A stretch of 40,736 bases of DNA from a virus: the UHGV virus genome UHGV-2023338. One strand, 5' to 3'. Below, piece by piece: positions 3,211-34,062 of this stretch. Positions within the stretch are counted from its first letter, which is position 1, and each line of letters opens with the position of its first letter. Under the pieces are notes generated by a model. It made no database searches. It was not told the DNA's origin and saw only the letters and a program-made list of their open reading frames with translations. Position numbers and translations under genes: made by a program.

Positions 3211-5955
3211 TTAACCTTTAGAAAAAACAGACAGTAACGGAAGTGTAAAAGTCGACACACCAGTATTCATCATGCAGGTTTTACCACCTGAGTATCCAGA
3301 TATGGTTTGCGAAACTGGACTTCCTGTTGTTGGGAAAATGGTGATTTCATCCCCCCCCTTCAATACTCTAACTTTGCCTGTAACATCAACCGATGAACTT
3401 GAAACAGACGTGAGAGATCCATTGGTCATTGTATAAAAGTTTATAGTTCCTGTTGCTGTTCTGCTTACACCACATCCTGATTTTTGCTTCTGTTTATAGT
3501 TAAACAATACCAGCAGGCCAACAGGCATTGACTCAAGCTCAACTGCTGTAGACTGGTAGGTCTTACTGCCGTTTCTCATGTCAGGAGCCTCATCATCTGG
3601 ATCAGAAAAATTATACCCAAGAGTTAAATCATTAACCGTGGCATTATTCCCTGTTATTCCTTTGACTTGATTAACACTTAACGGTATGTAATTAAACCCT
3701 GCAAAAAGCGGTGTTAACTTTTCTCTAAATAAAAGGCCTGGTGGGTATACTAACGAAGGTGTACCATCATATGTCACTGAGATAATATTAAGTCCCTTTT
3801 TAAGGGTTCCAATGCACGTTGTTTGTTTGCCTGTAAATGATGTTAGCCCATTGCTGGCAACTTTACCTGATAGATAAGAAGAGTTCCTGATGTCATTGAG
3901 AATGACATTGAACTGGTTAACACGATCTGATGAAGTATAAGTTGGGTTATATGGCTCAAATAATGTTACAGAGATATCGCTTGTATCACTCCATACAAAA
4001 TACCGACAAATAACATTTTCATTTGAAGGCGTAATCCTTCCCCATCCACCAAGTGCATCAAGATAATCACCTCCACTTAATATCGAAATTGATGGGTAGT
4101 ATCTGGTATTTGAAGGGTATCCAATACCAATAAATGAAAGTTGCGTAGTAGGGATTAGGTTCTTATTTTTTACAGCTGTATAAACGCGCTCTTTTAATAC
4201 CTCTTTTGCAGCATAAGCACCGATGTATGCATGTCCTATCGTTGATGGATGGCTCTGGTCAAAGACAGTACCGCCGTCACGTTTGGCAACATCAGATATA
4301 GAGTACGCGCCTATATCTGCATAAGCGTCAGTCGTGGCAATGGACAAATCCAAAAACTCGACCTTTGGGAAAAGGCGTTCGATACGCTTCTTAATGGCTG
4401 ACTCCAGGAAAGCCTTTGGCGCATCGTTATTGTTTACAGTAACAAAGCATATCGGACAACCATATCCCCATGATTTTCTAATCAACTTTTCAAACTCATG
4501 AAAATACGCTTCAAATCCTATTGTTGGAAGTATTCCATTGTCATTAAAACCAAGGCTTATAAAAAGAACATCAGGAGCTTTTTTTCCATACGCAGCATTC
4601 TGGAAAAATCCATAGTCGAAGTTTTCATAACCCCAACCTGTCGCAAGTGACTTGCCAGACGATCCGCAGTTATATGCTTTAAAAATATTATCCGTGCTGT
4701 CGGATAGCATATTGAGGCAATCAGTAAAAATTCTGAACCATGAATGCTTACCGCCATTTAAATTATGATTGTAGTTGGTAGAGTTAAGATTTCCATCGCT
4801 ACCAGTCGGGTTCGGGGTCCATCCTGAACTATAGGCTCCATCCGTTATAGAATCACCAATGATACCTACATGGCAATCTTCTACAGTTGATGGGTAACCC
4901 TGCTTATTTGCAAATTTAGCAATTGTTCCAAGAGCAGTAAAATCAGGGCCATTGTTAGATAGCCCAACATCAAAAACATGCTCATTACCCCATTTGTCTC
5001 TTGTGAGAATTTTACCTTCTCCAAGAAATTTAGTCACATCATCTGACGGTAAAAAATTACACCTGATGGTTACATCTTTTGGGATGTAAATCTGACCAGG
5101 GAAAGCATAAATTGCACTTCTGTTGTCAGTTGTCGTGTTAATAACGACATTTGGAACATAAAATATTGACGTTGCGTCAGTTCTATATTGTCCGTTAACA
5201 AGCTCAGATCTGAGAACCGCATCCCCAACACCTCTCCAAGCGCCAGGACCAACACCACCAGTAGTGGTAGGAGTTGATCCTGGAGGAACTACTTTGGGCA
5301 GTGGCCCGTCCCATCTGTAGTATTCGCCGTTGCTTTCCCAGAGAAGAACATCGTTAAGATAGATGATGGTATTACCCAACTCAAAAGATTTCTTCGTGTT
5401 ATAGCCATACAATCCATTTTCTAAGGTTTCAATAATGGTGCTAAGTATGGTACTAAATTTTGCATAAAGATCATCAGTATATTTTTTTGTAGCAGCATCT
5501 TGGGGAAGAGATGGATCACGAAGATTTCTAATATAATTTGAAAGCGCGTCATAAAAAATTGCTACGTCATTTGGCTTTCTTAAAGCCAACTTATCATTTC
5601 TTAATGATTGTTGAATGAGCATAGTAAGTTTATCAAACGCATCCTCATGTACCTCAGCGAAGAACTTACCCTGATTACGTAAATCCGTTTCCTGAGTAGC
5701 TGGTAGTTCTCGTGATATAGATATCTGATGACCGTTAGCCAACGCCTTCGAGAGAATTACATTACCGCCGTTATATCCTCCAGCCCCGGTAACTGTGTAA
5801 TCAGTATCAAGAGCCAGCACAGCGATATTTTCGTCAAGGTCAACCACCTGTACTACCAGATCAGATTTATTGAAAACCCTAAAGGTGTACGGAAATGATG
5901 TCGTAACGCCGTTACCTGTGTATTCGTTGTGGTCAACTTCGGTTGAGACCGTCAT
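3211..5955 (-). CDS. Tail fibre/tailspike with central SGNH (GDSL-type) hydrolase motif; candidate receptor-deacetylating esterase
   Basis: 914 aa; conserved phage tail-fibre N-terminal anchor (YTGNGVTTSFPYTF); HVGIIGDSITDG matches GDS(L) block I of SGNH esterases; AT-rich relative to neighbours; last virion gene before lysis genes. Confidence 0.8.
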   Translation of the reverse strand: MTVSTEVDHNEYTGNGVTTSFPYTFRVFNKSDLVVQVVDLDENIAVLALDTDYTVTGAGGYNGGNVILSKALANGHQISISRELPATQETDLRNQGKFFAEVHEDAFDKLTMLIQQSLRNDKLALRKPNDVAIFYDALSNYIRNLRDPSLPQDAATKKYTDDLYAKFSTILSTIIETLENGLYGYNTKKSFELGNTIIYLNDVLLWESNGEYYRWDGPLPKVVPPGSTPTTTGGVGPGAWRGVGDAVLRSELVNGQYRTDATSIFYVPNVVINTTTDNRSAIYAFPGQIYIPKDVTIRCNFLPSDDVTKFLGEGKILTRDKWGNEHVFDVGLSNNGPDFTALGTIAKFANKQGYPSTVEDCHVGIIGDSITDGAYSSGWTPNPTGSDGNLNSTNYNHNLNGGKHSWFRIFTDCLNMLSDSTDNIFKAYNCGSSGKSLATGWGYENFDYGFFQNAAYGKKAPDVLFISLGFNDNGILPTIGFEAYFHEFEKLIRKSWGYGCPICFVTVNNNDAPKAFLESAIKKRIERLFPKVEFLDLSIATTDAYADIGAYSISDVAKRDGGTVFDQSHPSTIGHAYIGAYAAKEVLKERVYTAVKNKNLIPTTQLSFIGIGYPSNTRYYPSISILSGGDYLDALGGWGRITPSNENVICRYFVWSDTSDISVTLFEPYNPTYTSSDRVNQFNVILNDIRNSSYLSGKVASNGLTSFTGKQTTCIGTLKKGLNIISVTYDGTPSLVYPPGLLFREKLTPLFAGFNYIPLSVNQVKGITGNNATVNDLTLGYNFSDPDDEAPDMRNGSKTYQSTAVELESMPVGLLVLFNYKQKQKSGCGVSRTATGTINFYTMTNGSLTSVSSSSVDVTGKVRVLKGGDEITIFPTTGSPVSQTISGYSGGKTCMMNTGVSTFTLPLLSVFSKG

Positions 5956-6111: not shown

Positions 6112-6130
6112 TACTGTATATTTATACAGT
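6112..6130 (+). promoter_or_regulatory. LexA (SOS) box
   Basis: TACTGTATATTTATACAGT = CTGT-N8-ACAG with AT-rich spacer, near-identical to E. coli LexA consensus TACTGTATATATATACAGTA; 21 bp upstream of ATG at 6151; -35-like TTGCTA at 6108-6113. Confidence 0.7.
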
Positions 6131-6150
6131 TATTGCTTGGAGAAGATAAG

Positions 6151-6408
6151 ATGCAGCAGTATCACTATCCACTGGAAGACGGATTTACCGAAAGGATTCA
6201 CACGCCGGGAGGCGTCAGGTCACTGGTGGAGGGATCGCACTTGATGAAATTACTCCGGGCTCTCGATAAGGATGGATTTAATGTCGATGGCCCACTTGCC
6301 GAACTGACTGCACTGATTAACTACGTCACCAGCTCACAGATGTCTATGCAGGATCTGCAAACACATCTCGACTATTGTGCCGAACAATTACGAAAACAAA
6401 TCAGGTAA
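6151..6408 (+). CDS. Hypothetical 85-aa protein, SOS-box-associated moron (candidate antirepressor)
   Basis: Internal Met of track ORF 6043-6408 preceded by GGAG RBS; only plus-strand gene inside minus-strand virion operon; function inferred from context only. Confidence 0.45.
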   Translation: MQQYHYPLEDGFTERIHTPGGVRSLVEGSHLMKLLRALDKDGFNVDGPLAELTALINYVTSSQMSMQDLQTHLDYCAEQLRKQIR

Positions 6409-22359: not shown

Positions 22360-22373
22360 TTCAATGACTCCGG

Positions 22374-22580
22374 TTACTGACCAAGCAGCGTTTTACCGCT
22401 GGTATTAGCAGTTGATGTGTCGCCCTGAGAACCGGTAAGCAGCGTAGAACTACGACCAGCAGCAGCGCGACGGCGACGTGTTTCTTCGTCGCGGGCATCA
22501 ACAACGGCGGCATCCTGCTCCTGTGGTGCTGCCTGAACTTCTGGTGTTGCAGGCACTGATGGTGAGCTACCCATGCACAT
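22374..22580 (-). CDS. Small hypothetical protein upstream of portal
   Basis: 68-aa ORF with GGAG RBS; competing overlapping ORF in another frame makes call uncertain. Confidence 0.3.
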   Translation of the reverse strand: MCMGSSPSVPATPEVQAAPQEQDAAVVDARDEETRRRRAAAGRSSTLLTGSQGDTSTANTSGKTLLGQ

Positions 22581-22670
22581 ATCAATGACTCCGTACGCAA
22601 TTAAATTATTACCAATTTAACCATATATGATTTATTTATCGTAGGTAGTTGACATTTAACGCACAAATTA

Positions 22671-22685
22671 TTACCTTTAAGGTAA
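22671..22685. promoter_or_regulatory. Operator-like palindrome TTACCTTTAAGGTAA
   Basis: Perfect TTACC-N5-GGTAA; TTGACA hexamer at 22649-22654 lies 17 bp upstream. Confidence 0.5.
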
Positions 22686-23008
22686 GCAAAGGGTTCATTC
22701 CGGTTATTAACCTGACTGGCTTGTCGTTAAATTGAACAGGTGGAGTGAGCTTTTATTTTGAGCAGTACGGCGTATGGCACATGCGCCGATAGCGGTATGG
22801 ATACGTTTAAGGGGCACCCTCCCTTGCTCGGGCAAACGAACCAGGTAGCCGGAATGTGCAAGTCGAGCGGTTTTATTCCGCGCACGGGGATTCACCATCC
22901 CGGCGATTCGGTGTGACGCCTCGGAAGAGACGAGGGTACAACGATGAGAGCATTTATGGAGCTGCGACAAAGTGTGGCGCACTTAACAGGCTAAGTGCTC
23001 TCAGCGTT

Positions 23009-23085
23009 GTGGCATTAGCTCAGTTGGACAGAGCAACCGCCTTCTAAGCGGTTGGTCGCAGGTTCGAATCCTGCATGCCACGCCA
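23009..23085 (+). tRNA. tRNA-Arg (anticodon UCU), phage-encoded
   Basis: Cloverleaf folded by hand: acceptor GTGGCAT/ATGCCAC, D-arm GCTC/GAGC, anticodon stem ACCGC/GCGGT with loop CUUCUAA, T-arm GCAGG-TTCGAAT-CCTGC, encoded CCA. Confidence 0.9.
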
Positions 23086-23128
23086 GAATCACGCCTAAGG
23101 ACCGTGATGCCAGAAGTTCCAGGGGCTT

Positions 23129-23170
23129 GGCGGTGATGGTTTCCCTTGAAGGACTATCACCGCCCTTTTT
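23129..23170 (+). terminator. Candidate terminator downstream of tRNA
   Basis: GGCGGTGAT...ATCACCGCC inverted repeat with long loop, followed by CTTTTT. Confidence 0.4.
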
Positions 23171-23200
23171 ACAGCAGGACGCCATTGCGATGACTTCATG

Positions 23201-23216
23201 CTGTAAACCAGTACAG
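23201..23216. promoter_or_regulatory. LexA-box-like motif CTGTAAACCAGTACAG (weaker)
   Basis: CTGT-N8-ACAG spacing correct but spacer not AT-rich; 68 bp upstream of gene at 23284. Confidence 0.3.
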
Positions 23217-23248
23217 CCACGGAAGGCATAACTCATTGCTTCCAGTTT

Positions 23249-23272
23249 GCCCGGTTCGCCGGGCATTTTTTT
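23249..23272 (+). terminator. Intrinsic terminator/attenuator 12 bp upstream of start codon
   Basis: GCCCGG-TTCG-CCGGGC followed by ATTTTTTT; lies between LexA-like box and RBS of gene at 23284. Confidence 0.55.
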
Positions 23273-23283
23273 AAGGTGAGATT

Positions 23284-23661
23284 ATGAACGACCAGCAAAT
23301 CGAAAAAGAAATCATTGAGAAAGGCAAAACGGCACCGCGAATCACCCCGCAGCACATCGAAGACGTGATTATTAGTGAGCACTATTTCACGGCTGCAGAA
23401 GGGGTTCATGGCGCTAATGAGCTTTTAAAACCGCATGAAAGCCCAATTGACTATTACCAGGAAGCGCACCCTGCTGAGTCACTTCTGACCTTCTGCGTTC
23501 TGGTGCTGCGCAACGGATTTACTGTAACCGGAGAAAGCGCCTGTGCAAGCCATGAAAACTTTGATGCAGAAATTGGTCGGAAGATTGCCCGGCAGAATGC
23601 TGTAAACAAAATCTGGATGCTCGAAGGTTACTTGCTGAAGCAGAAGCTAAGCGAGCAATAA
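23284..23661 (+). CDS. Phage N4 Gp49 / Sf6 gp66-family protein (function unknown)
   Basis: 125 aa; C-terminal pattern VLRNGFTVTGESACASHENFDAEIGRKIA...KIWMLEGYLL matches my recollection of this family; AGGTGAG RBS. Confidence 0.5.
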   Translation: MNDQQIEKEIIEKGKTAPRITPQHIEDVIISEHYFTAAEGVHGANELLKPHESPIDYYQEAHPAESLLTFCVLVLRNGFTVTGESACASHENFDAEIGRKIARQNAVNKIWMLEGYLLKQKLSEQ

Positions 23662-23664
23662 CAC

Positions 23665-23678
23665 CGTGACATGTCACA
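23665..23678. repeat. Palindrome CGTGACATGTCACA (copy 2 of 3)
   Basis: Directly read; 4 nt after stop of gene 23284-23661; followed by hairpin and TTTGTTTT. Confidence 0.8.
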
Positions 23679-23820
23679 AACAGCCGGCCGATGAGCTGGC
23701 TTTGTTTTATCCTCATCAGAGGATATCAACGACATTATCCCCTCATAGGGATACGTTTTTCATAATGACCGAAGATTACCTTAAAGGTAGAATCAGAAAA
23801 AAACCTAAAAGGGCCTGGAC

Positions 23821-24561
23821 ATGCTTGAATCACTTAAAGAATACCTATCTTCAACCGTTAATACCGCTGCGCAAAGGGTCAGAAATCCAGTGTTTGGAGC
23901 GTTCGCACTGTCATGGTGCGCCTTTAACTGGAAGTCGATTTTATACTTACTCCTCAGCGACTCCAGCATCATCGACAAGATCACCTACATTTCCAGCAAT
24001 AGCAGTTGGAAAACGGTATTAGCATTCCCATGTGTTTCAGCAATAATCCTGTGCGGCGGCATGCCCTGGATCAACAACGTGATTTCAAAGTGGCAAGCCA
24101 AACCTCTTGATAATTACGATTCGATAGAGAACCACCGGAAGGCCAAGCGCATTCATCGCGCCACACGCCTGCAGCGCCTGAAGGCAAAGCACGATGTGAC
24201 ATACGACAAAGTTAAGACTGGCGCCGAAAAGGACATACAGGCTATGAAGGAAAGAATTACGGAGTCACAGGCCAGGATGGGTGAGCTAACGTCGGAAAGA
24301 GATAGGCTCTCCGATAAGGTTTTGGAATTGAATAAGAAGCTGGAAAACATGCAATCAGTGGCTGCAGCGTTAAAGATTGAGGCAGAAAAGTCCGCCAGAA
24401 TGCTTGAAGATAGGGAGGCCAAAATAAATAATCTCATACAAGAATTAAAGGAAAAAGAAAAGGAAAGTATCGTATTGCATATGGGCCATGAACCCTTGCG
24501 AAAAACATATACATCACAGGCTGAGAGAATGATTGCTGAAGCCGTGAAAAATAAGCAATAA
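23821..24561 (+). CDS. AT-rich membrane protein with two TM helices and long cytoplasmic coiled coil (candidate superinfection-exclusion/abortive-infection protein)
   Basis: 246 aa; hydrophobic N-terminal segments then K/E-rich heptad-like region; noticeably AT-rich codon usage; converges on terL. Confidence 0.5.
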   Translation: MLESLKEYLSSTVNTAAQRVRNPVFGAFALSWCAFNWKSILYLLLSDSSIIDKITYISSNSSWKTVLAFPCVSAIILCGGMPWINNVISKWQAKPLDNYDSIENHRKAKRIHRATRLQRLKAKHDVTYDKVKTGAEKDIQAMKERITESQARMGELTSERDRLSDKVLELNKKLENMQSVAAALKIEAEKSARMLEDREAKINNLIQELKEKEKESIVLHMGHEPLRKTYTSQAERMIAEAVKNKQ

Positions 24562-24562
24562 A

Positions 24563-26038
24563 TCACGCAAACGGGTCGTAATCTGTGATGGCCTTGCCTT
24601 GCTGGTTCTGCTGACCGGGAATTCGCAGGCGCTTCGACACAGGGAAAGCAAACGTCAGCAATAGCGCATCGCCTTTCCCCGGCGAACGCCCAAGTCGTTC
24701 TTTGATATCTTCCTTCGGTTCGATAACGATTTTACCGTCCACGCGAACTTTGTACTCTGCCGTCGACAGGTCGTCCGCTGTTTCCTGGTCATCCAGCATA
24801 CCGCCCAGCCTCAGCCATGTCTTACATGAGTTGAACATCTCCCCACGCTTGTTGAGCATCTGCGGGTCAGTAGACGCGCCACCGAACGGAACAAGTTGCC
24901 ATGTCCTGCCCCAGCCGTCACCGATGGACTTCAGCCCGGTGCCGTAACCGAAGTCGATGAACACCGCGTCAGCCTGGTACTGGTCTTCAAAGTCGGCGAT
25001 TCGCTTAGCCATAATCAAATCGTCGGTGGTCTTGTTGCCGGTCCAGAGCACTTTGCTGTGCAGCCCCTGCCGCAGGTATATCACCGCGTCATCAACTCCG
25101 GAATACGCCGGGTCGACGCCGATAATCACAGGAGCGTGAGCAACCTGCCCGGCGGTAACCACCCGCTTCATGGCCTCGTCTGTAAGGCCTGTTGGGATAA
25201 ACTGGAGTTCTGACGCGTCAGGGAAGATCCCCCGCACGCGGACCTTCACGAAGTCGCTGTCTTCCCCGTAGTCATCAACCCATTTCTGCAACTGCTGTTT
25301 GTTAGTGCCTTCCACCGTCCGGCTGTCAATCTGCGCAGTTTTCCAGCGGTGTTTATATTTGCGGAAACATTCGCGGAAACGCCCGGTATTACGCGTCGGG
25401 TTCCCGAACGCCACCCAGATGATTTCGGTGTCTTCGTCCGTAAGCGCACCCTCAGCAACTTCCCACACCAGATCCGCAATGTTCGACGCTTCATCGAATA
25501 CCACGATGATGCGTTTGCGCTCGTTGTGTAGTCCGGCGAATGCCTCAGTGTTGTGCTCAGACCAGGGTATTGCGTCAGCCCGCCACCGCTTGTCGTGCCC
25601 AGGATCATTGCTGTACATCGCGGTAGCGGTACAGGTAAACCAGTCTTTCGTGATGGCAAGGTTCGACCACTTGATAATTTCCGGCCAGGTCTTCGTTCGT
25701 AGCTGGTTGTCGGTGTTGGCGGTCACCACGACCTTACAATCCTCGCAAGTGGACATGCCCCAGTTGATCAGCATTGAGATGAATGCGGATTTACCAATAC
25801 CGTGACCAGAAGCGCGTGCCAGCATAAGCGGCTGATAGCGCGTCTCTGGATTCTGCAGGTGATCACGTATCTCTCGGAACGCATCGGCCTGCCACTGACG
25901 TGGACCGGTGGCATGTGCCAGTTCAGTACCCTCTTCCCCCCACGGGAACGCATAGAGGGCATAGCCAAGCGGATCGTGAGTGAACCCTGCAATATCCTCG
26001 ATCAACTGCTCTTCAGGAGATAACGCTGTATCTGTCAC
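24563..26038 (-). CDS. terL: Terminase large subunit
   Basis: 491 aa; Walker A-like ASGHGIGKS and Walker B-like IIVVFDEA; overlaps small subunit by 4 nt. Confidence 0.9.
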   Translation of the reverse strand: MTDTALSPEEQLIEDIAGFTHDPLGYALYAFPWGEEGTELAHATGPRQWQADAFREIRDHLQNPETRYQPLMLARASGHGIGKSAFISMLINWGMSTCEDCKVVVTANTDNQLRTKTWPEIIKWSNLAITKDWFTCTATAMYSNDPGHDKRWRADAIPWSEHNTEAFAGLHNERKRIIVVFDEASNIADLVWEVAEGALTDEDTEIIWVAFGNPTRNTGRFRECFRKYKHRWKTAQIDSRTVEGTNKQQLQKWVDDYGEDSDFVKVRVRGIFPDASELQFIPTGLTDEAMKRVVTAGQVAHAPVIIGVDPAYSGVDDAVIYLRQGLHSKVLWTGNKTTDDLIMAKRIADFEDQYQADAVFIDFGYGTGLKSIGDGWGRTWQLVPFGGASTDPQMLNKRGEMFNSCKTWLRLGGMLDDQETADDLSTAEYKVRVDGKIVIEPKEDIKERLGRSPGKGDALLLTFAFPVSKRLRIPGQQNQQGKAITDYDPFA

Positions 26039-26631
26039 TGATTACCATCCTGACGTTCTTTGAGTCGCTTCCTGGCTGCTGCTATGCGATCAGCAATTGT
26101 CACATTCACATTAACATCCAGGCGTTCTTTGAATGCGTTGACGTCGACGTGCTTACCAATCAGTTCTAGGTTCTTCACCTTGTCAGGCCATTTAATTTTT
26201 TTGAGGATTGTCTCTATCGAGTCCTCGTTCATGTTCATGATGGTCGATGACAGATCAAAGCCGCTAAGCGTAGTGCGCCATATTTTCGGCCACTCGCGGA
26301 TTGGCTTAAGACTCCCATCGTCGTTGAGGATATCAATCACGTCCATCTGGTCGATCTCCACCAGGCGCATGAGAACGTAATCAGCACTGACGCGCATTCG
26401 TTTGTTGCGCTCCTCCATCAACTCGGCAATCCGTTTTTTAATGCGTTCATCACGCATCATGACACTGGCTTTAACTGCCGCTGTATTTGGGGAGAATCCT
26501 GCGTTAATCGCTGCCTGAGTCTGGTTTTCAGGCGTTTTGATGTATGACTGGCAATAAGCCTCCTGCATTGCTGTTAGTGGCTTAAATTGCGTTGATTTGC
26601 GTTTATAGGTTTTAGGTTCAGCAGACATCAT
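26035..26631 (-). CDS. terS: Terminase small subunit
   Basis: Start trimmed to Met downstream of hairpin terminator (track ORF N-terminal extension is Thr/Val/Ile junk); HTH-like FSPNTAA region; directly upstream of terL. Confidence 0.7.
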   Translation of the reverse strand: MMSAEPKTYKRKSTQFKPLTAMQEAYCQSYIKTPENQTQAAINAGFSPNTAAVKASVMMRDERIKKRIAELMEERNKRMRVSADYVLMRLVEIDQMDVIDILNDDGSLKPIREWPKIWRTTLSGFDLSSTIMNMNEDSIETILKKIKWPDKVKNLELIGKHVDVNAFKERLDVNVNVTIADRIAAARKRLKERQDGNQ

Positions 26632-26638
26632 AACCACC

Positions 26639-26667
26639 GTGGTAATAGTTACCGTTGTGGTAATAGT
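26639..26667. repeat. Direct repeat GTGGTAATAGT x2 (18-bp period) containing operator-like TTACCGTTGTGGTAA (26649-26663)
   Basis: Directly read; lies across terS start region, between late-region terminator and terS coding sequence. Confidence 0.6.
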
Positions 26668-26673
26668 ACCATG

Positions 26674-26700
26674 CAAAATAAAGCCGCCATAGTTGGCGGC
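26674..26700 (-). terminator. Intrinsic terminator upstream of terS (minus strand), tR-prime-like
   Basis: GCCGCCA-tagt-TGGCGGC hairpin followed on minus strand by TTTATTTTG. Confidence 0.5.
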
Positions 26701-26740
26701 AGTATTCAAAACCCATCAAATTCATCATGCATAATCTAAT

Positions 26741-33092: not shown

Positions 33093-33323
33093 TCATGAGT
33101 AGAAGAAGTATGCCAGTTCTGCTTTTGAGCGCAGCCATTGTCTTGTTTTACAGGCTTTAAAAAGCCCATTCATCAATACTTTACCTGGCATTTTGCGCTT
33201 ACCTGTTAAGTGAGTCTGGATATAGTGACTCGTCGTTCCGGCTTCCTGTGCGAAGGCTTCACGCTCATCCGGAGTAAGTGCAAGCCAGTGCTTTTTGAAA
33301 TCGAAATGTTCGTTATCGCTCAT
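33093..33323 (-). CDS. Cro-like small HTH regulator
   Basis: 76 aa; HTH-like segment AFAQEAGTTSHYIQTHLTGKRK; first gene of rightward (minus-strand) early operon leading to replication genes. Confidence 0.5.
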   Translation of the reverse strand: MSDNEHFDFKKHWLALTPDEREAFAQEAGTTSHYIQTHLTGKRKMPGKVLMNGLFKACKTRQWLRSKAELAYFFYS

Positions 33324-33477: not shown

Positions 33478-34062
33478 ATGAAAAGTATCCAGGACGTCCG
33501 CAGGCAAAATCTCAACGACTTGATCGACCGTGAATTCAATGGTGTTCAGACGCGGATGGCAGAAAAACTTGGAACTCAGGCAAATCTGGTAAACCGCTGG
33601 GCTCTTGGCAAGAAGGTTATCGGCGACCAGGTTGCGCGAAAAATTGAAGCTGCCGCCAATAAACCACGTAACTGGCTTGATATCGATCGCTCGCTTTCTC
33701 AGGAAGGTTTTCAGCCTGTCGGCCCGAGCGATATAGGTCAGCTGGCGGCTCACAACCTGGAACGCTGGATGAGCGAAAGCCGCGACCTTTCAACACAGGG
33801 AAAACTTCACCGCGCATCCGGCGTCGCCCAGGTGACAATCAGCCGCCTGTTAAACAATGAAGTCAGCGTTTCCATTTCCACCCTGGAGAATGTTGCATCC
33901 GCATTCGGGCGTCACGGCTATGAATTACTGATTCACCCGCACGACCCTGCGACTATCAACTATGATCGCTCGCGCTACGCATTGTTACCTGAAACAGAGA
34001 AGGCAAAGATCGAAAGTTACATTGAATTTGTCATCAACCAGAACGAAAAAAGCAAACAATAA
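33478..34062 (+). CDS. CI-like prophage repressor candidate (two HTH regions, no evident autopeptidase domain)
   Basis: 194 aa; XRE-type HTH MAEKLGTQANLVNRWALGKK and second HTH-like ASGVAQVTISRLLNNEV; no Ala-Gly/Ser...Lys S24-type motifs seen; followed by terminator. Confidence 0.55.
   Translation: MKSIQDVRRQNLNDLIDREFNGVQTRMAEKLGTQANLVNRWALGKKVIGDQVARKIEAAANKPRNWLDIDRSLSQEGFQPVGPSDIGQLAAHNLERWMSESRDLSTQGKLHRASGVAQVTISRLLNNEVSVSISTLENVASAFGRHGYELLIHPHDPATINYDRSRYALLPETEKAKIESYIEFVINQNEKSKQ

Follow-up and report, generated by a model that had tools for sequence, protein, structure and literature searches.

SPO1 anti-CBASS 4 (Acb4), the founding member of its family, comes from a Bacillus phage and was described as a tetrameric sponge for 3'3'-cGAMP and other signals of the cyclic oligonucleotide-based antiphage signaling system (CBASS) (Chang et al. 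2024; PMC11722364). The same study assigned Acb4 to PF13876, found that eight of eight homologues tested bound 3'3'-cGAMP, reported binding of c-di-AMP as well by homologues from phages of Gram-negative hosts, and included phiV10 Q287B5 and Sf6 gp66 in its list of family members (Table S3) (PMC11722364). Here we present an analysis of UHGV virus genome UHGV-2023338, a stretch of 40,736 nucleotides referred to below as the window, in which positions 23129-24561 hold a leader and two genes, A and B. We read this region, with moderate confidence, as a variable accessory slot of a Uetakevirus prophage that carries two independent cargo units, the first of them an Acb4-family gene. The slot resembles anti-CRISPR loci and the sponge genes Tad1, Tad2 and Acb2 in its fixed position, its conserved flanks and the alternative small cargo found in sister genomes and, as in known anti-defence loci, three of its cargo families are known nucleotide-signal sponges. 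It is unlike known accessory hot spots in that the cargo docks precisely 11-16 nt after a terminator-like hairpin, behind a tRNA gene, and in that its direction of transcription is opposite to that of the late genes on either side. No description of this slot was found in the papers searched.

The DNA of positions 22600-24700 has its best matches in phiV10, vB_EcoP_ZX5, the O157 typing phages 9 and 10 and many Escherichia coli prophages, with 92-98% identity over parts of the length only. The gene order terS, terL, short plus-strand insert, 68-amino-acid gene and portal is common to the annotated relatives. On the strength of these matches and this shared order, the window is assigned to a Uetakevirus (phiV10/epsilon15-like) prophage or phage. 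Gene A (23284-23661, plus strand, 125 amino acids) and gene B (23821-24561, plus strand, 246 amino acids) sit between two units, terS-terL and portal, on the strand opposite to these flanks, and converge on terL (24563-26038, minus strand), which follows gene B after a gap of 1 nt. Both open reading frames (ORFs) were found where the earlier note on this DNA had placed them.

Gene A matches Pfam PF13876 (Phage_gp49_66) with an E-value of 2e-35 (121.6 bits, cut-off 27), its residues 20-122 covering profile positions 1-82 of 82, and the Gp49/66-family label given to it previously is thereby upheld. Its sole PDB sequence match is 9e4w, SPO1 Acb4 (E 0.007 over the core), with which it has an ENFxxEIGR core motif and the beta-core in common, and its C-terminal 58 residues are almost identical to phiV10 Q287B5 and Sf6 gp66. 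According to the phmmer alignment and an SPO1-like sequence, three SPO1 ligand contacts are identical in gene A (F48=F79, F62=F93 and I66=I97) and two are changed (N63 to D94, a backbone contact, and V56 to C87). Both proteins are phage-encoded. In comparison with the 96 amino acids of SPO1 Acb4 (PDB 9E4W), the 125 amino acids of gene A are extended at the N terminus and contain a variable insert around residues 37-66. Neither K36 nor E49, the guanine-specific contacts, is retained, and ligand preference may differ. The GC content of gene A is 47.6%. Membership in the Acb4 family is solid at the level of sequence, and gene A itself is to be counted as already known, a sponge of a listed family.

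The assignment bears on two statements of the earlier note, which recognized no known defence family in the two genes and likened their architecture to superinfection-exclusion or abortive-infection proteins. For gene A the first statement was wrong, PF13876 being the Acb4 family with the phiV10 and Sf6 orthologues listed, and the second has to be turned around: because PF13876 is the family of Acb4 anti-CBASS sponges, gene A is predicted to be an anti-CBASS counter-defence protein and not a defence protein. It would form a tetramer and bind up the cyclic dinucleotides of CBASS (3'3'-cGAMP, and probably c-di-AMP too), and with the signal sequestered the CBASS effector of the host would not be triggered.

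An exact search with a 32-nt block of the leader (23178-23209) returned at least 120 IMG/VR contigs, and the cargo of the slot was classified in 105 IMG/VR contigs with terL within 4.5 kb. Acb4 was present in 43 of the 105 (alone in 40, with the unnamed family U2 in two, and with gene B, as in the window, in one), and gene B in 23, including 22 in which it was alone. The unnamed family U1 (144 amino acids, phrog_4846; e.g., L040) accounted for 16 contigs, a Tad2-like protein (PF11195) for seven, U3 for three (one with U2, e.g., L080), U6 for two (e.g., L130), and U9, the Acb2/Tad1-hairpin protein (PF24729, E 3.6e-17), for one (L061); U7 (e.g., L037), U10, U11 and U12 were found in one contig each, and the slot was empty in seven. 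U2 occurred only as a second gene (three contigs). At least 12 cargo families were thus distinguished in the 105 contigs, three of which were identified at Pfam cut-offs (PF13876, PF11195 and PF24729). Because three unrelated families of nucleotide sponges occupy one junction, the slot is, judged by its contents, an anti-defence hot spot, and the unnamed cargo families are candidate new anti-defence genes.

Further loci with cargo docked behind the same hairpin (L070, L090 and L137) were observed, and several of the cargo families are unannotated. In Klebsiella phage ST512-KPC3phi13.3 (L008, 3453-3974) the slot holds a Tad2-like protein of 173 amino acids (PF11195, E 4e-26) that is extended at its N terminus by about 75 residues. 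Klebsiella phage BUCT711 (L009, 3345-3590) carries an 81-amino-acid ORF with a hairpin of its own at another position, between hairpin 1 and the invariant block described below, which means that the slot has a second insertion point; this ORF had no Pfam match.

Upstream of the junction, the slot appears to present a constant platform consisting of a promoter and operator at about 22650, a tRNA-Arg(UCU) gene, hairpin 1, an inverted-repeat block, and hairpin 2 with its run of seven T residues (T7). The putative promoter of the plus-strand unit is located at 22649-22685 (plus strand; TTGACA, 17 nt, TACCTT). The tRNA-Arg(UCU) gene (23009-23085, plus strand; ARAGORN, and Rfam RF00005 with 73.3 bits) is present in 73 of 91 related contigs. 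Directly 3' of it lies the terminator-like hairpin 1 (23129-23170, plus strand; stem-loop 23129-23164), a 14-bp stem followed by CTTTTT (-22.8 kcal/mol, z -5.8), whose stem is kept in the Klebsiella lineage via paired changes (GGCGGTGAT/ATCACCGCC versus GGCGGTGG/CCACCGCC). A conserved inverted repeat with 18-nt arms (TTTACAGCAGGACGCCAT / ATGACTTCATGCTGTAAA) extends over 23168-23207. The 32-nt block 23178-23209 is the core of this repeat and is 100% identical between the E. coli and the Klebsiella Uetakeviruses, with flanks at about 79%.

Hairpin 2 (23248-23272, plus strand; stem-loop 23248-23265, T7 at 23266-23272) has the sequence TGCCCGG-TTCG-CCGGGCA, with a stem of 7 bp, six of them G-C (-13.6 kcal/mol, z -3.4; 0 of 200 shuffles as stable), and its T7 ends 11 nt before the ATG of gene A. 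As a G+C-rich stem-loop followed by a U-run on the transcribed strand, it is a predicted intrinsic terminator. Its consensus recurs in 100 of the 105 contigs, so that the hairpin plus U-run pointed out before gene A in the earlier note is a real leader element. The tRNA gene, hairpin 1, the 32-nt block and hairpin 2 are conserved in the alignment of E. coli and Klebsiella sequences, and the sequence 3' of hairpin 2 differs. It is behind this hairpin that promoterless cargo begins, at a distance of 11-16 nt from the T-run, in 42 of 42 cases for Acb4, in 13 of 15 for U1, and also for U3, U7, U9 and U11. The platform would accordingly end 11-16 nt before the resident cargo gene, and in the window the cargo driven from it would be gene A. 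The tRNA-Arg(UCU) gene, hairpin 1, the promoter of gene B and a third hairpin between the two genes (both described below) were absent from the earlier note.

A search of Rfam at the gathering threshold, and at E <= 1 over positions 22360-23830, returned the tRNA only, apart from a RyhB match (21.8 bits, E 0.34) that was set aside as terminator noise. Inspection by eye of both strands of the invariant block for a sigma-70 promoter gave none that was convincing. A stem that encloses hairpin 2 and would sequester the Shine-Dalgarno sequence folds in the window (z -2.7), not convincingly in phiV10, and with z -0.28 in the Klebsiella leader; because of this lack of support in the relatives, no attenuator is claimed. 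The possibility that the leader block is a tRNA trailer was rejected, as the block accompanies gene B in lambdoid prophages without the tRNA. PhiV10p04, an 83-amino-acid minus-strand ORF of phiV10 that corresponds to window positions 23015-23266, is probably spurious and overlaps the tRNA gene and the hairpins.

From the putative promoter to the tRNA gene (22700-23008), about 300 nt show partial conservation with Klebsiella phages (e.g., GGCGTATGGCACATGCGCCGATAGCGGT); this stretch may correspond to a small RNA or to a leader that is processed. It contains a 91-amino-acid minus-strand ORF, which is probably spurious, and a 19-nt inverted repeat (22938-22956 / 22992-23010) that reaches into the tRNA gene at its 5' end. 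An exact 11-nt direct repeat, ATGCTGTAAAC, is found in the leader block (23198-23208) and in the conserved 3' end of the Acb4 gene (23597-23607); it could be due to chance or be an aid to recombination.

Gene B behaves as a unit of its own. The third hairpin (hairpin 3, 23682-23708; hairpin proper 23682-23701), between genes A and B, is terminator-like (-12.3 kcal/mol) with T-rich tails on both strands, and in phiV10 it is annotated as a putative rho-independent terminator directly after terL. It is followed by a sigma-70-like promoter called by the scan tool at 23765-23793 (plus strand; ATGACC, 17 nt, TAGAAT), and the promoter pattern xTGACx-17-TAnAAT is kept upstream of gene B homologues in seven of seven contexts, including lambdoid prophages and an island at guaA. 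As cargo behind hairpin 2, gene B starts 59-63 nt after the T-run, the extra sequence being its own promoter. Gene A only is found in phiV10 and ZX5; gene B only in E. coli UTME-9 and four other complete E. coli genomes; and both together in several draft genomes. Gene B is present in UTME-9, BUCT711 and the window and absent from phiV10 and ZX5. These three states among relatives bear out the proposal of horizontally acquired cargo. The proposal of a single two-gene cassette does not survive, because the genes are divided by a terminator-like hairpin, because a promoter accompanies gene B in seven contexts, and because each gene also occurs without the other. In the window, gene B would be a second, autonomous unit inserted between the terminator of gene A and the end of terL.

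Beyond the slot adjacent to terL, in which it is found in both E. coli and Klebsiella Uetakeviruses, gene B occurs in lambdoid prophages of Klebsiella, Enterobacter and Citrobacter, alone and in antisense orientation between the replication and nin genes. Among 50,697 GenBank phage records it was found in three, all of them temperate and Uetakevirus-like. The invariant block and a degraded hairpin 2 precede gene B in the lambdoid prophages that have no tRNA gene, which we interpret as the trace of a transfer from a Uetakevirus. An intact homologue lies beside guaA/guaB in Enterobacter cloacae (L024), with no phage structural genes within 5 kb; guaA is the Uetakevirus attachment site (PMC9782041), and the locus looks like a prophage remnant or an island at that site. 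The neighbours of gene B at this locus are a gene for a 776-amino-acid SEC-C-motif protein and Hcp/Tlde1 genes of a type VI secretion system. In one Klebsiella lambdoid prophage (L004), a perfect LexA box, TACTGTATAAAATTACAGTA, was observed at 5603-5622, before a 63-amino-acid minus-strand gene that adjoins the gene B unit.

With its own promoter and its presence or absence among near-identical phages, gene B qualifies as a moron. As in morons in the sense of Juhala and Hendrix, it is self-promoted, preceded by terminator-like hairpins, oriented against the strand of its neighbours, and present in some genomes and absent from others. Unlike them, it has no downstream terminator of its own but abuts or overlaps the end of terL, its deviation in GC content is modest, and the palindrome in its promoter (see below) is shared with the regulatory regions of the phage itself.

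The model taken from the earlier note combines the two genes in a single exclusion or abortive-infection cassette, co-transcribed under LexA control behind a leader attenuator. The string CTGT-N8-ACAG on which LexA control would depend is present at 23201-23216 (CTGTAAACCAGTACAG, an exact match) and is the second-best match to the LexA position weight matrix (PWM) in the window; the leader hairpin is real and conserved, and the two genes lie on the same strand. The bare string says little by itself, since 0.57 occurrences are expected by chance and three were seen in the window. With a matrix rebuilt from operator sequences, which makes all values approximate, the box has a heterology index of 13.1 and a PWM score of 10.6, as compared with 0.3-9.6 and 13.0-26.9, respectively, for the 20 known boxes. 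Its left half is the 3' arm of the conserved inverted repeat, and its right half is absent from the Klebsiella Uetakeviruses, which have CTGTAAACCCTGTGACACCCAG and no ACAG at N8 spacing after 32 invariant nucleotides. It overlaps no recognizable promoter. Given the loss of the right half in Klebsiella and a heterology index out of range, 23201-23216 is probably not a functional SOS box, and direct SOS control through it is not supported. The cassette is further contradicted by the membership of gene A in an anti-defence family, by the separate occurrence of the genes, by the terminator-like hairpin and the promoter that part them, and by the lack of any PADLOC match beyond coiled-coil noise. 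We consider it very improbable.

A near-consensus SOS box, TACTGTATATTTATACAGTT, is located elsewhere in the window, at 6112-6131 (plus strand; approximate heterology index 1.5, PWM 27.3), 20 nt upstream of an 85-amino-acid gene (6151-6408, plus strand) that has the tailspike gene on one side and the genes for internal proteins on the other. The product matches phrog_450 (function unknown) and, weakly, the antirepressor phrog_1760 (E 1.6e-6); it is probably a LexA-controlled antirepressor that induces the prophage. As this canonical SOS box precedes a putative antirepressor, any SOS input to the slot is more likely to be indirect, by way of that protein.

A palindrome is dispersed over the window. 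Allowing at most one mismatch, TTACC-N5-GGTAA has 13 sites (3863, 6060, 22671, 23776, 26631, 26649, 31015, 31077, 33023, 33360, 33408, 34120 and 34182), compared with 0.72 +/- 0.86 in shuffled sequences. Sites occur in the intergenic region between a cro-like gene (33093-33323, minus strand) and a 194-amino-acid repressor-like gene (33478-34062), whose matches in PHROGs are only to repressors or regulators of the helix-turn-helix type; as pairs 62 bp apart that flank promoter-like sequences (31015/31077 and 34120/34182); and upstream of terS, the tRNA gene and gene B. Most transcription units are preceded by a site. At the platform, the perfect palindrome TTACCTTTAAGGTAA (22671-22685) overlaps the TTGACA-17-TACCTT promoter upstream of the tRNA gene; in a comparison of the E. 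coli lineage with that of Klebsiella, the -35 element and the two arms of the palindrome do not change, and the spacer and the N5 vary. Of 91 related contigs, 85 have a perfect TTACC-N5-GGTAA at a distance of 350-700 nt upstream of the leader block. At gene B, TTACCTTAAAGGTAG (23776-23790) lies in the promoter spacer, and 14 of 19 gene B promoters from Uetakeviruses retain the palindrome with at most one mismatch. Two sites (26631-26663) are located inside the listed terS ORF (26035-26709, TTG start), among its N-terminal codons. A shorter terS is annotated in ZX5 and the true start is probably downstream, in which case the palindromes at 26631 and 26649 would be part of the region that holds the promoter for the packaging operon.

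TTACC-N5-GGTAA is probably the operator of the immunity repressor. The arrangement is like that of the C1 operators of P1 and the stoperators of cluster A mycobacteriophages, where one short motif is found at many transcription units including the immunity region; it differs in that the motif is symmetric, is often paired at a distance of 62 bp, and is assigned to its repressor by inference. A search of the literature on Uetakevirus operators gave nothing relevant and no description of the palindrome. If the palindrome is the repressor's operator, a repressor bound at the platform and gene B promoters would keep the slot silent in the lysogen, and it would be switched on at infection or induction, with SOS acting only indirectly, through the putative antirepressor 6151-6408 behind its LexA box.

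The protein encoded by gene B consists of two parts. The first, residues 1-160, is conserved and comprises two hydrophobic helices and a basic juxtamembrane helix; the second, residues 161-246, is a hypervariable coiled-coil tail. When 36 sequences with less than 80% mutual identity were aligned, 58 invariant columns fell within residues 1-159 and none in the tail beyond 159; the mean pairwise identity is 71-81% in the N-terminal part and 16% in the tail. Two residues, W32 and N36, are invariant throughout the wider family; R19, G26, W37, P70 and P82 are nearly so. The AlphaFold2 model (overall predicted local distance difference test score, pLDDT, 77.7) contains a helix at residues 134-221 with pLDDT >90, and in one register 76% of the heptad a and d positions are hydrophobic, compared with 37.5% overall; the long coiled coil proposed in the earlier note is confirmed by this helix and heptad pattern. 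Of the two transmembrane helices proposed, residues 66-84 exceed the usual Kyte-Doolittle threshold (peak 1.95), whereas residues 27-45 remain below it (1.31). The gene had also been called markedly AT-rich. This holds for the tail only (codons 161-246, 39.1% GC, rich in E, K, L, N and I), which is the sole clearly low part, but not for the whole gene, whose 44.8% compares with 49.1% for the window (standard deviation 3.7% for 741-bp windows) and is equalled or undercut by 10.6% of windows. The ratio of K+R to D+E is 12/5 on the C-terminal side of the second hydrophobic helix and 1/2 in the loop that joins the two helices, a charge distribution which suggests an inner-membrane protein with both termini inside and a cytoplasmic tail.

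Database searches placed gene B in an uncharacterized, prophage-restricted family. It belongs to phrog_4780, a phrog of unknown function; its 204 homologues are all from Enterobacteriaceae and all named 'hypothetical', as are the source entries of 10 distant clusters. A profile search at E <= 1e-10 retrieved 311 cluster representatives. Pfam, NCBIfam, PADLOC and PHROGs yielded only phrogs of unknown function and coiled-coil noise; neither gene B nor 61 relatives matched any Pfam model (SieB and Imm included) or PADLOC-DB v2 model outside the coiled coil; and searches of PDB and BFVD and by structure returned coiled coils only. Nothing relevant was found in the literature searched for a membrane coiled-coil exclusion protein or for lambdoid hot spots.

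As a small inner-membrane protein encoded by a single gene in an accessory position of a temperate phage, the product of gene B recalls SieB of lambda and P22, SieA of P22, Imm of T4, and RexB. It differs from them in having no detected similarity to them in sequence or fold, and none of them has a long hypervariable cytoplasmic coiled coil. We tentatively take gene B to encode a membrane-anchored protein of the exclusion or abortive-infection type in which the variable tail sets specificity, the likeliest of the readings considered, based on its restriction to temperate phages, its autonomous promoter, its antisense position in lambdoid prophages and the intact copy beside guaA.

The nature of the tail bears on the alternative that gene B has no part in the conflict between phage and host and encodes a lysogenic-conversion or housekeeping membrane protein, involved in envelope stress, lysis timing or assistance of DNA entry, with a tail that varies under relaxed constraint. 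Gene B is homologous to no defence or anti-defence family, coiled coils can absorb drift in their sequence, and the low GC content of the tail can be explained by its E, K, N, I and L codons. The tails, however, are discrete classes shuffled on a near-identical N-terminal part, and because they form discrete types, the variation suggests exchange of modules, not drift; moreover, the gene is found in recognized accessory slots of two unrelated prophage types. A role outside the conflict is therefore regarded as improbable.

Several points weigh against the account given so far, both for the slot and for gene B. The -10 element of the platform promoter matches the consensus at three of six positions, and this promoter was not called by the scan tool. 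Hairpins 1 and 2 in series should block most transcription into gene A, and a sponge needs abundant expression; neither an antiterminator nor a statistically supported alternative structure was found in the leader. Five of 10 SPO1 contacts (K36, E49, Y57, T70 and K81) differ in gene A or lie outside the aligned stretch, and for this reason its ligand range is uncertain. The palindrome at gene B overlaps the -10 element and persists in lambdoid prophages with other repressors, where its conservation may reflect promoter function only. Finally, the sharing of the slot with three sponge families, together with the operator-like palindrome, points towards counter-defence in the lytic phase and away from exclusion.

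This last point corresponds to a further alternative for gene B, a counter-defence factor made early that blocks or decoys a membrane-acting effector (the two- or four-transmembrane effectors of CBASS, Thoeris and Panoptes-type systems, or Rex-like channels), with a tail that tracks the targets of the host. The slot of sister phages holds Acb4, Tad2-like and Acb2/Tad1 proteins, all of experimentally founded sponge families; gene B is the sole cargo in 22 of 105 contigs, as if it replaced a sponge; and the operator-like palindrome in its promoter predicts expression in the lytic phase. Unlike the sponges, however, gene B never uses the platform junction and always has its own promoter. It was found in no virulent phage, the three GenBank records being temperate; it runs antisense to the early operon in lambdoid prophages, as a lysogenic-conversion gene would; and an intact copy persists beside guaA away from phage structural genes. 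We regard counter-defence by gene B as unlikely, and retain the exclusion or abortive-infection type as our tentative reading.

Taken as a whole, the features listed in the earlier note are real and their interpretation was mostly wrong. Gene A apart, what is new in the region is an undescribed anti-defence docking slot and an uncharacterized family of membrane proteins. A bolder proposal, which we put forward as doubtful, is that gene B founds a new class of phage-conflict proteins, in which the conserved two-helix module with its basic juxtamembrane helix is the working part and the swappable tail confers specificity, either as a sensor of the exclusion or abortive-infection type or as a membrane counter-defence protein, and that the platform of tRNA gene and hairpins is an 'expression dock' whose unnamed cargo (U1, U2, U3, U6, U7 and U10-U12) consists of new anti-defence genes.

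For the biology of the group, the region means that a conserved leader with a tRNA gene, two hairpins and a fixed junction offers interchangeable cargo in at least 100 genomes of temperate enterobacterial phages. As three sponge families are among this cargo, the unnamed families and gene B make up a short, testable list of candidates for immune evasion or exclusion. If the operators are real, the sponge would be kept silent in the lysogen, sparing the CBASS and Thoeris systems of the host, and would be released at infection or induction.

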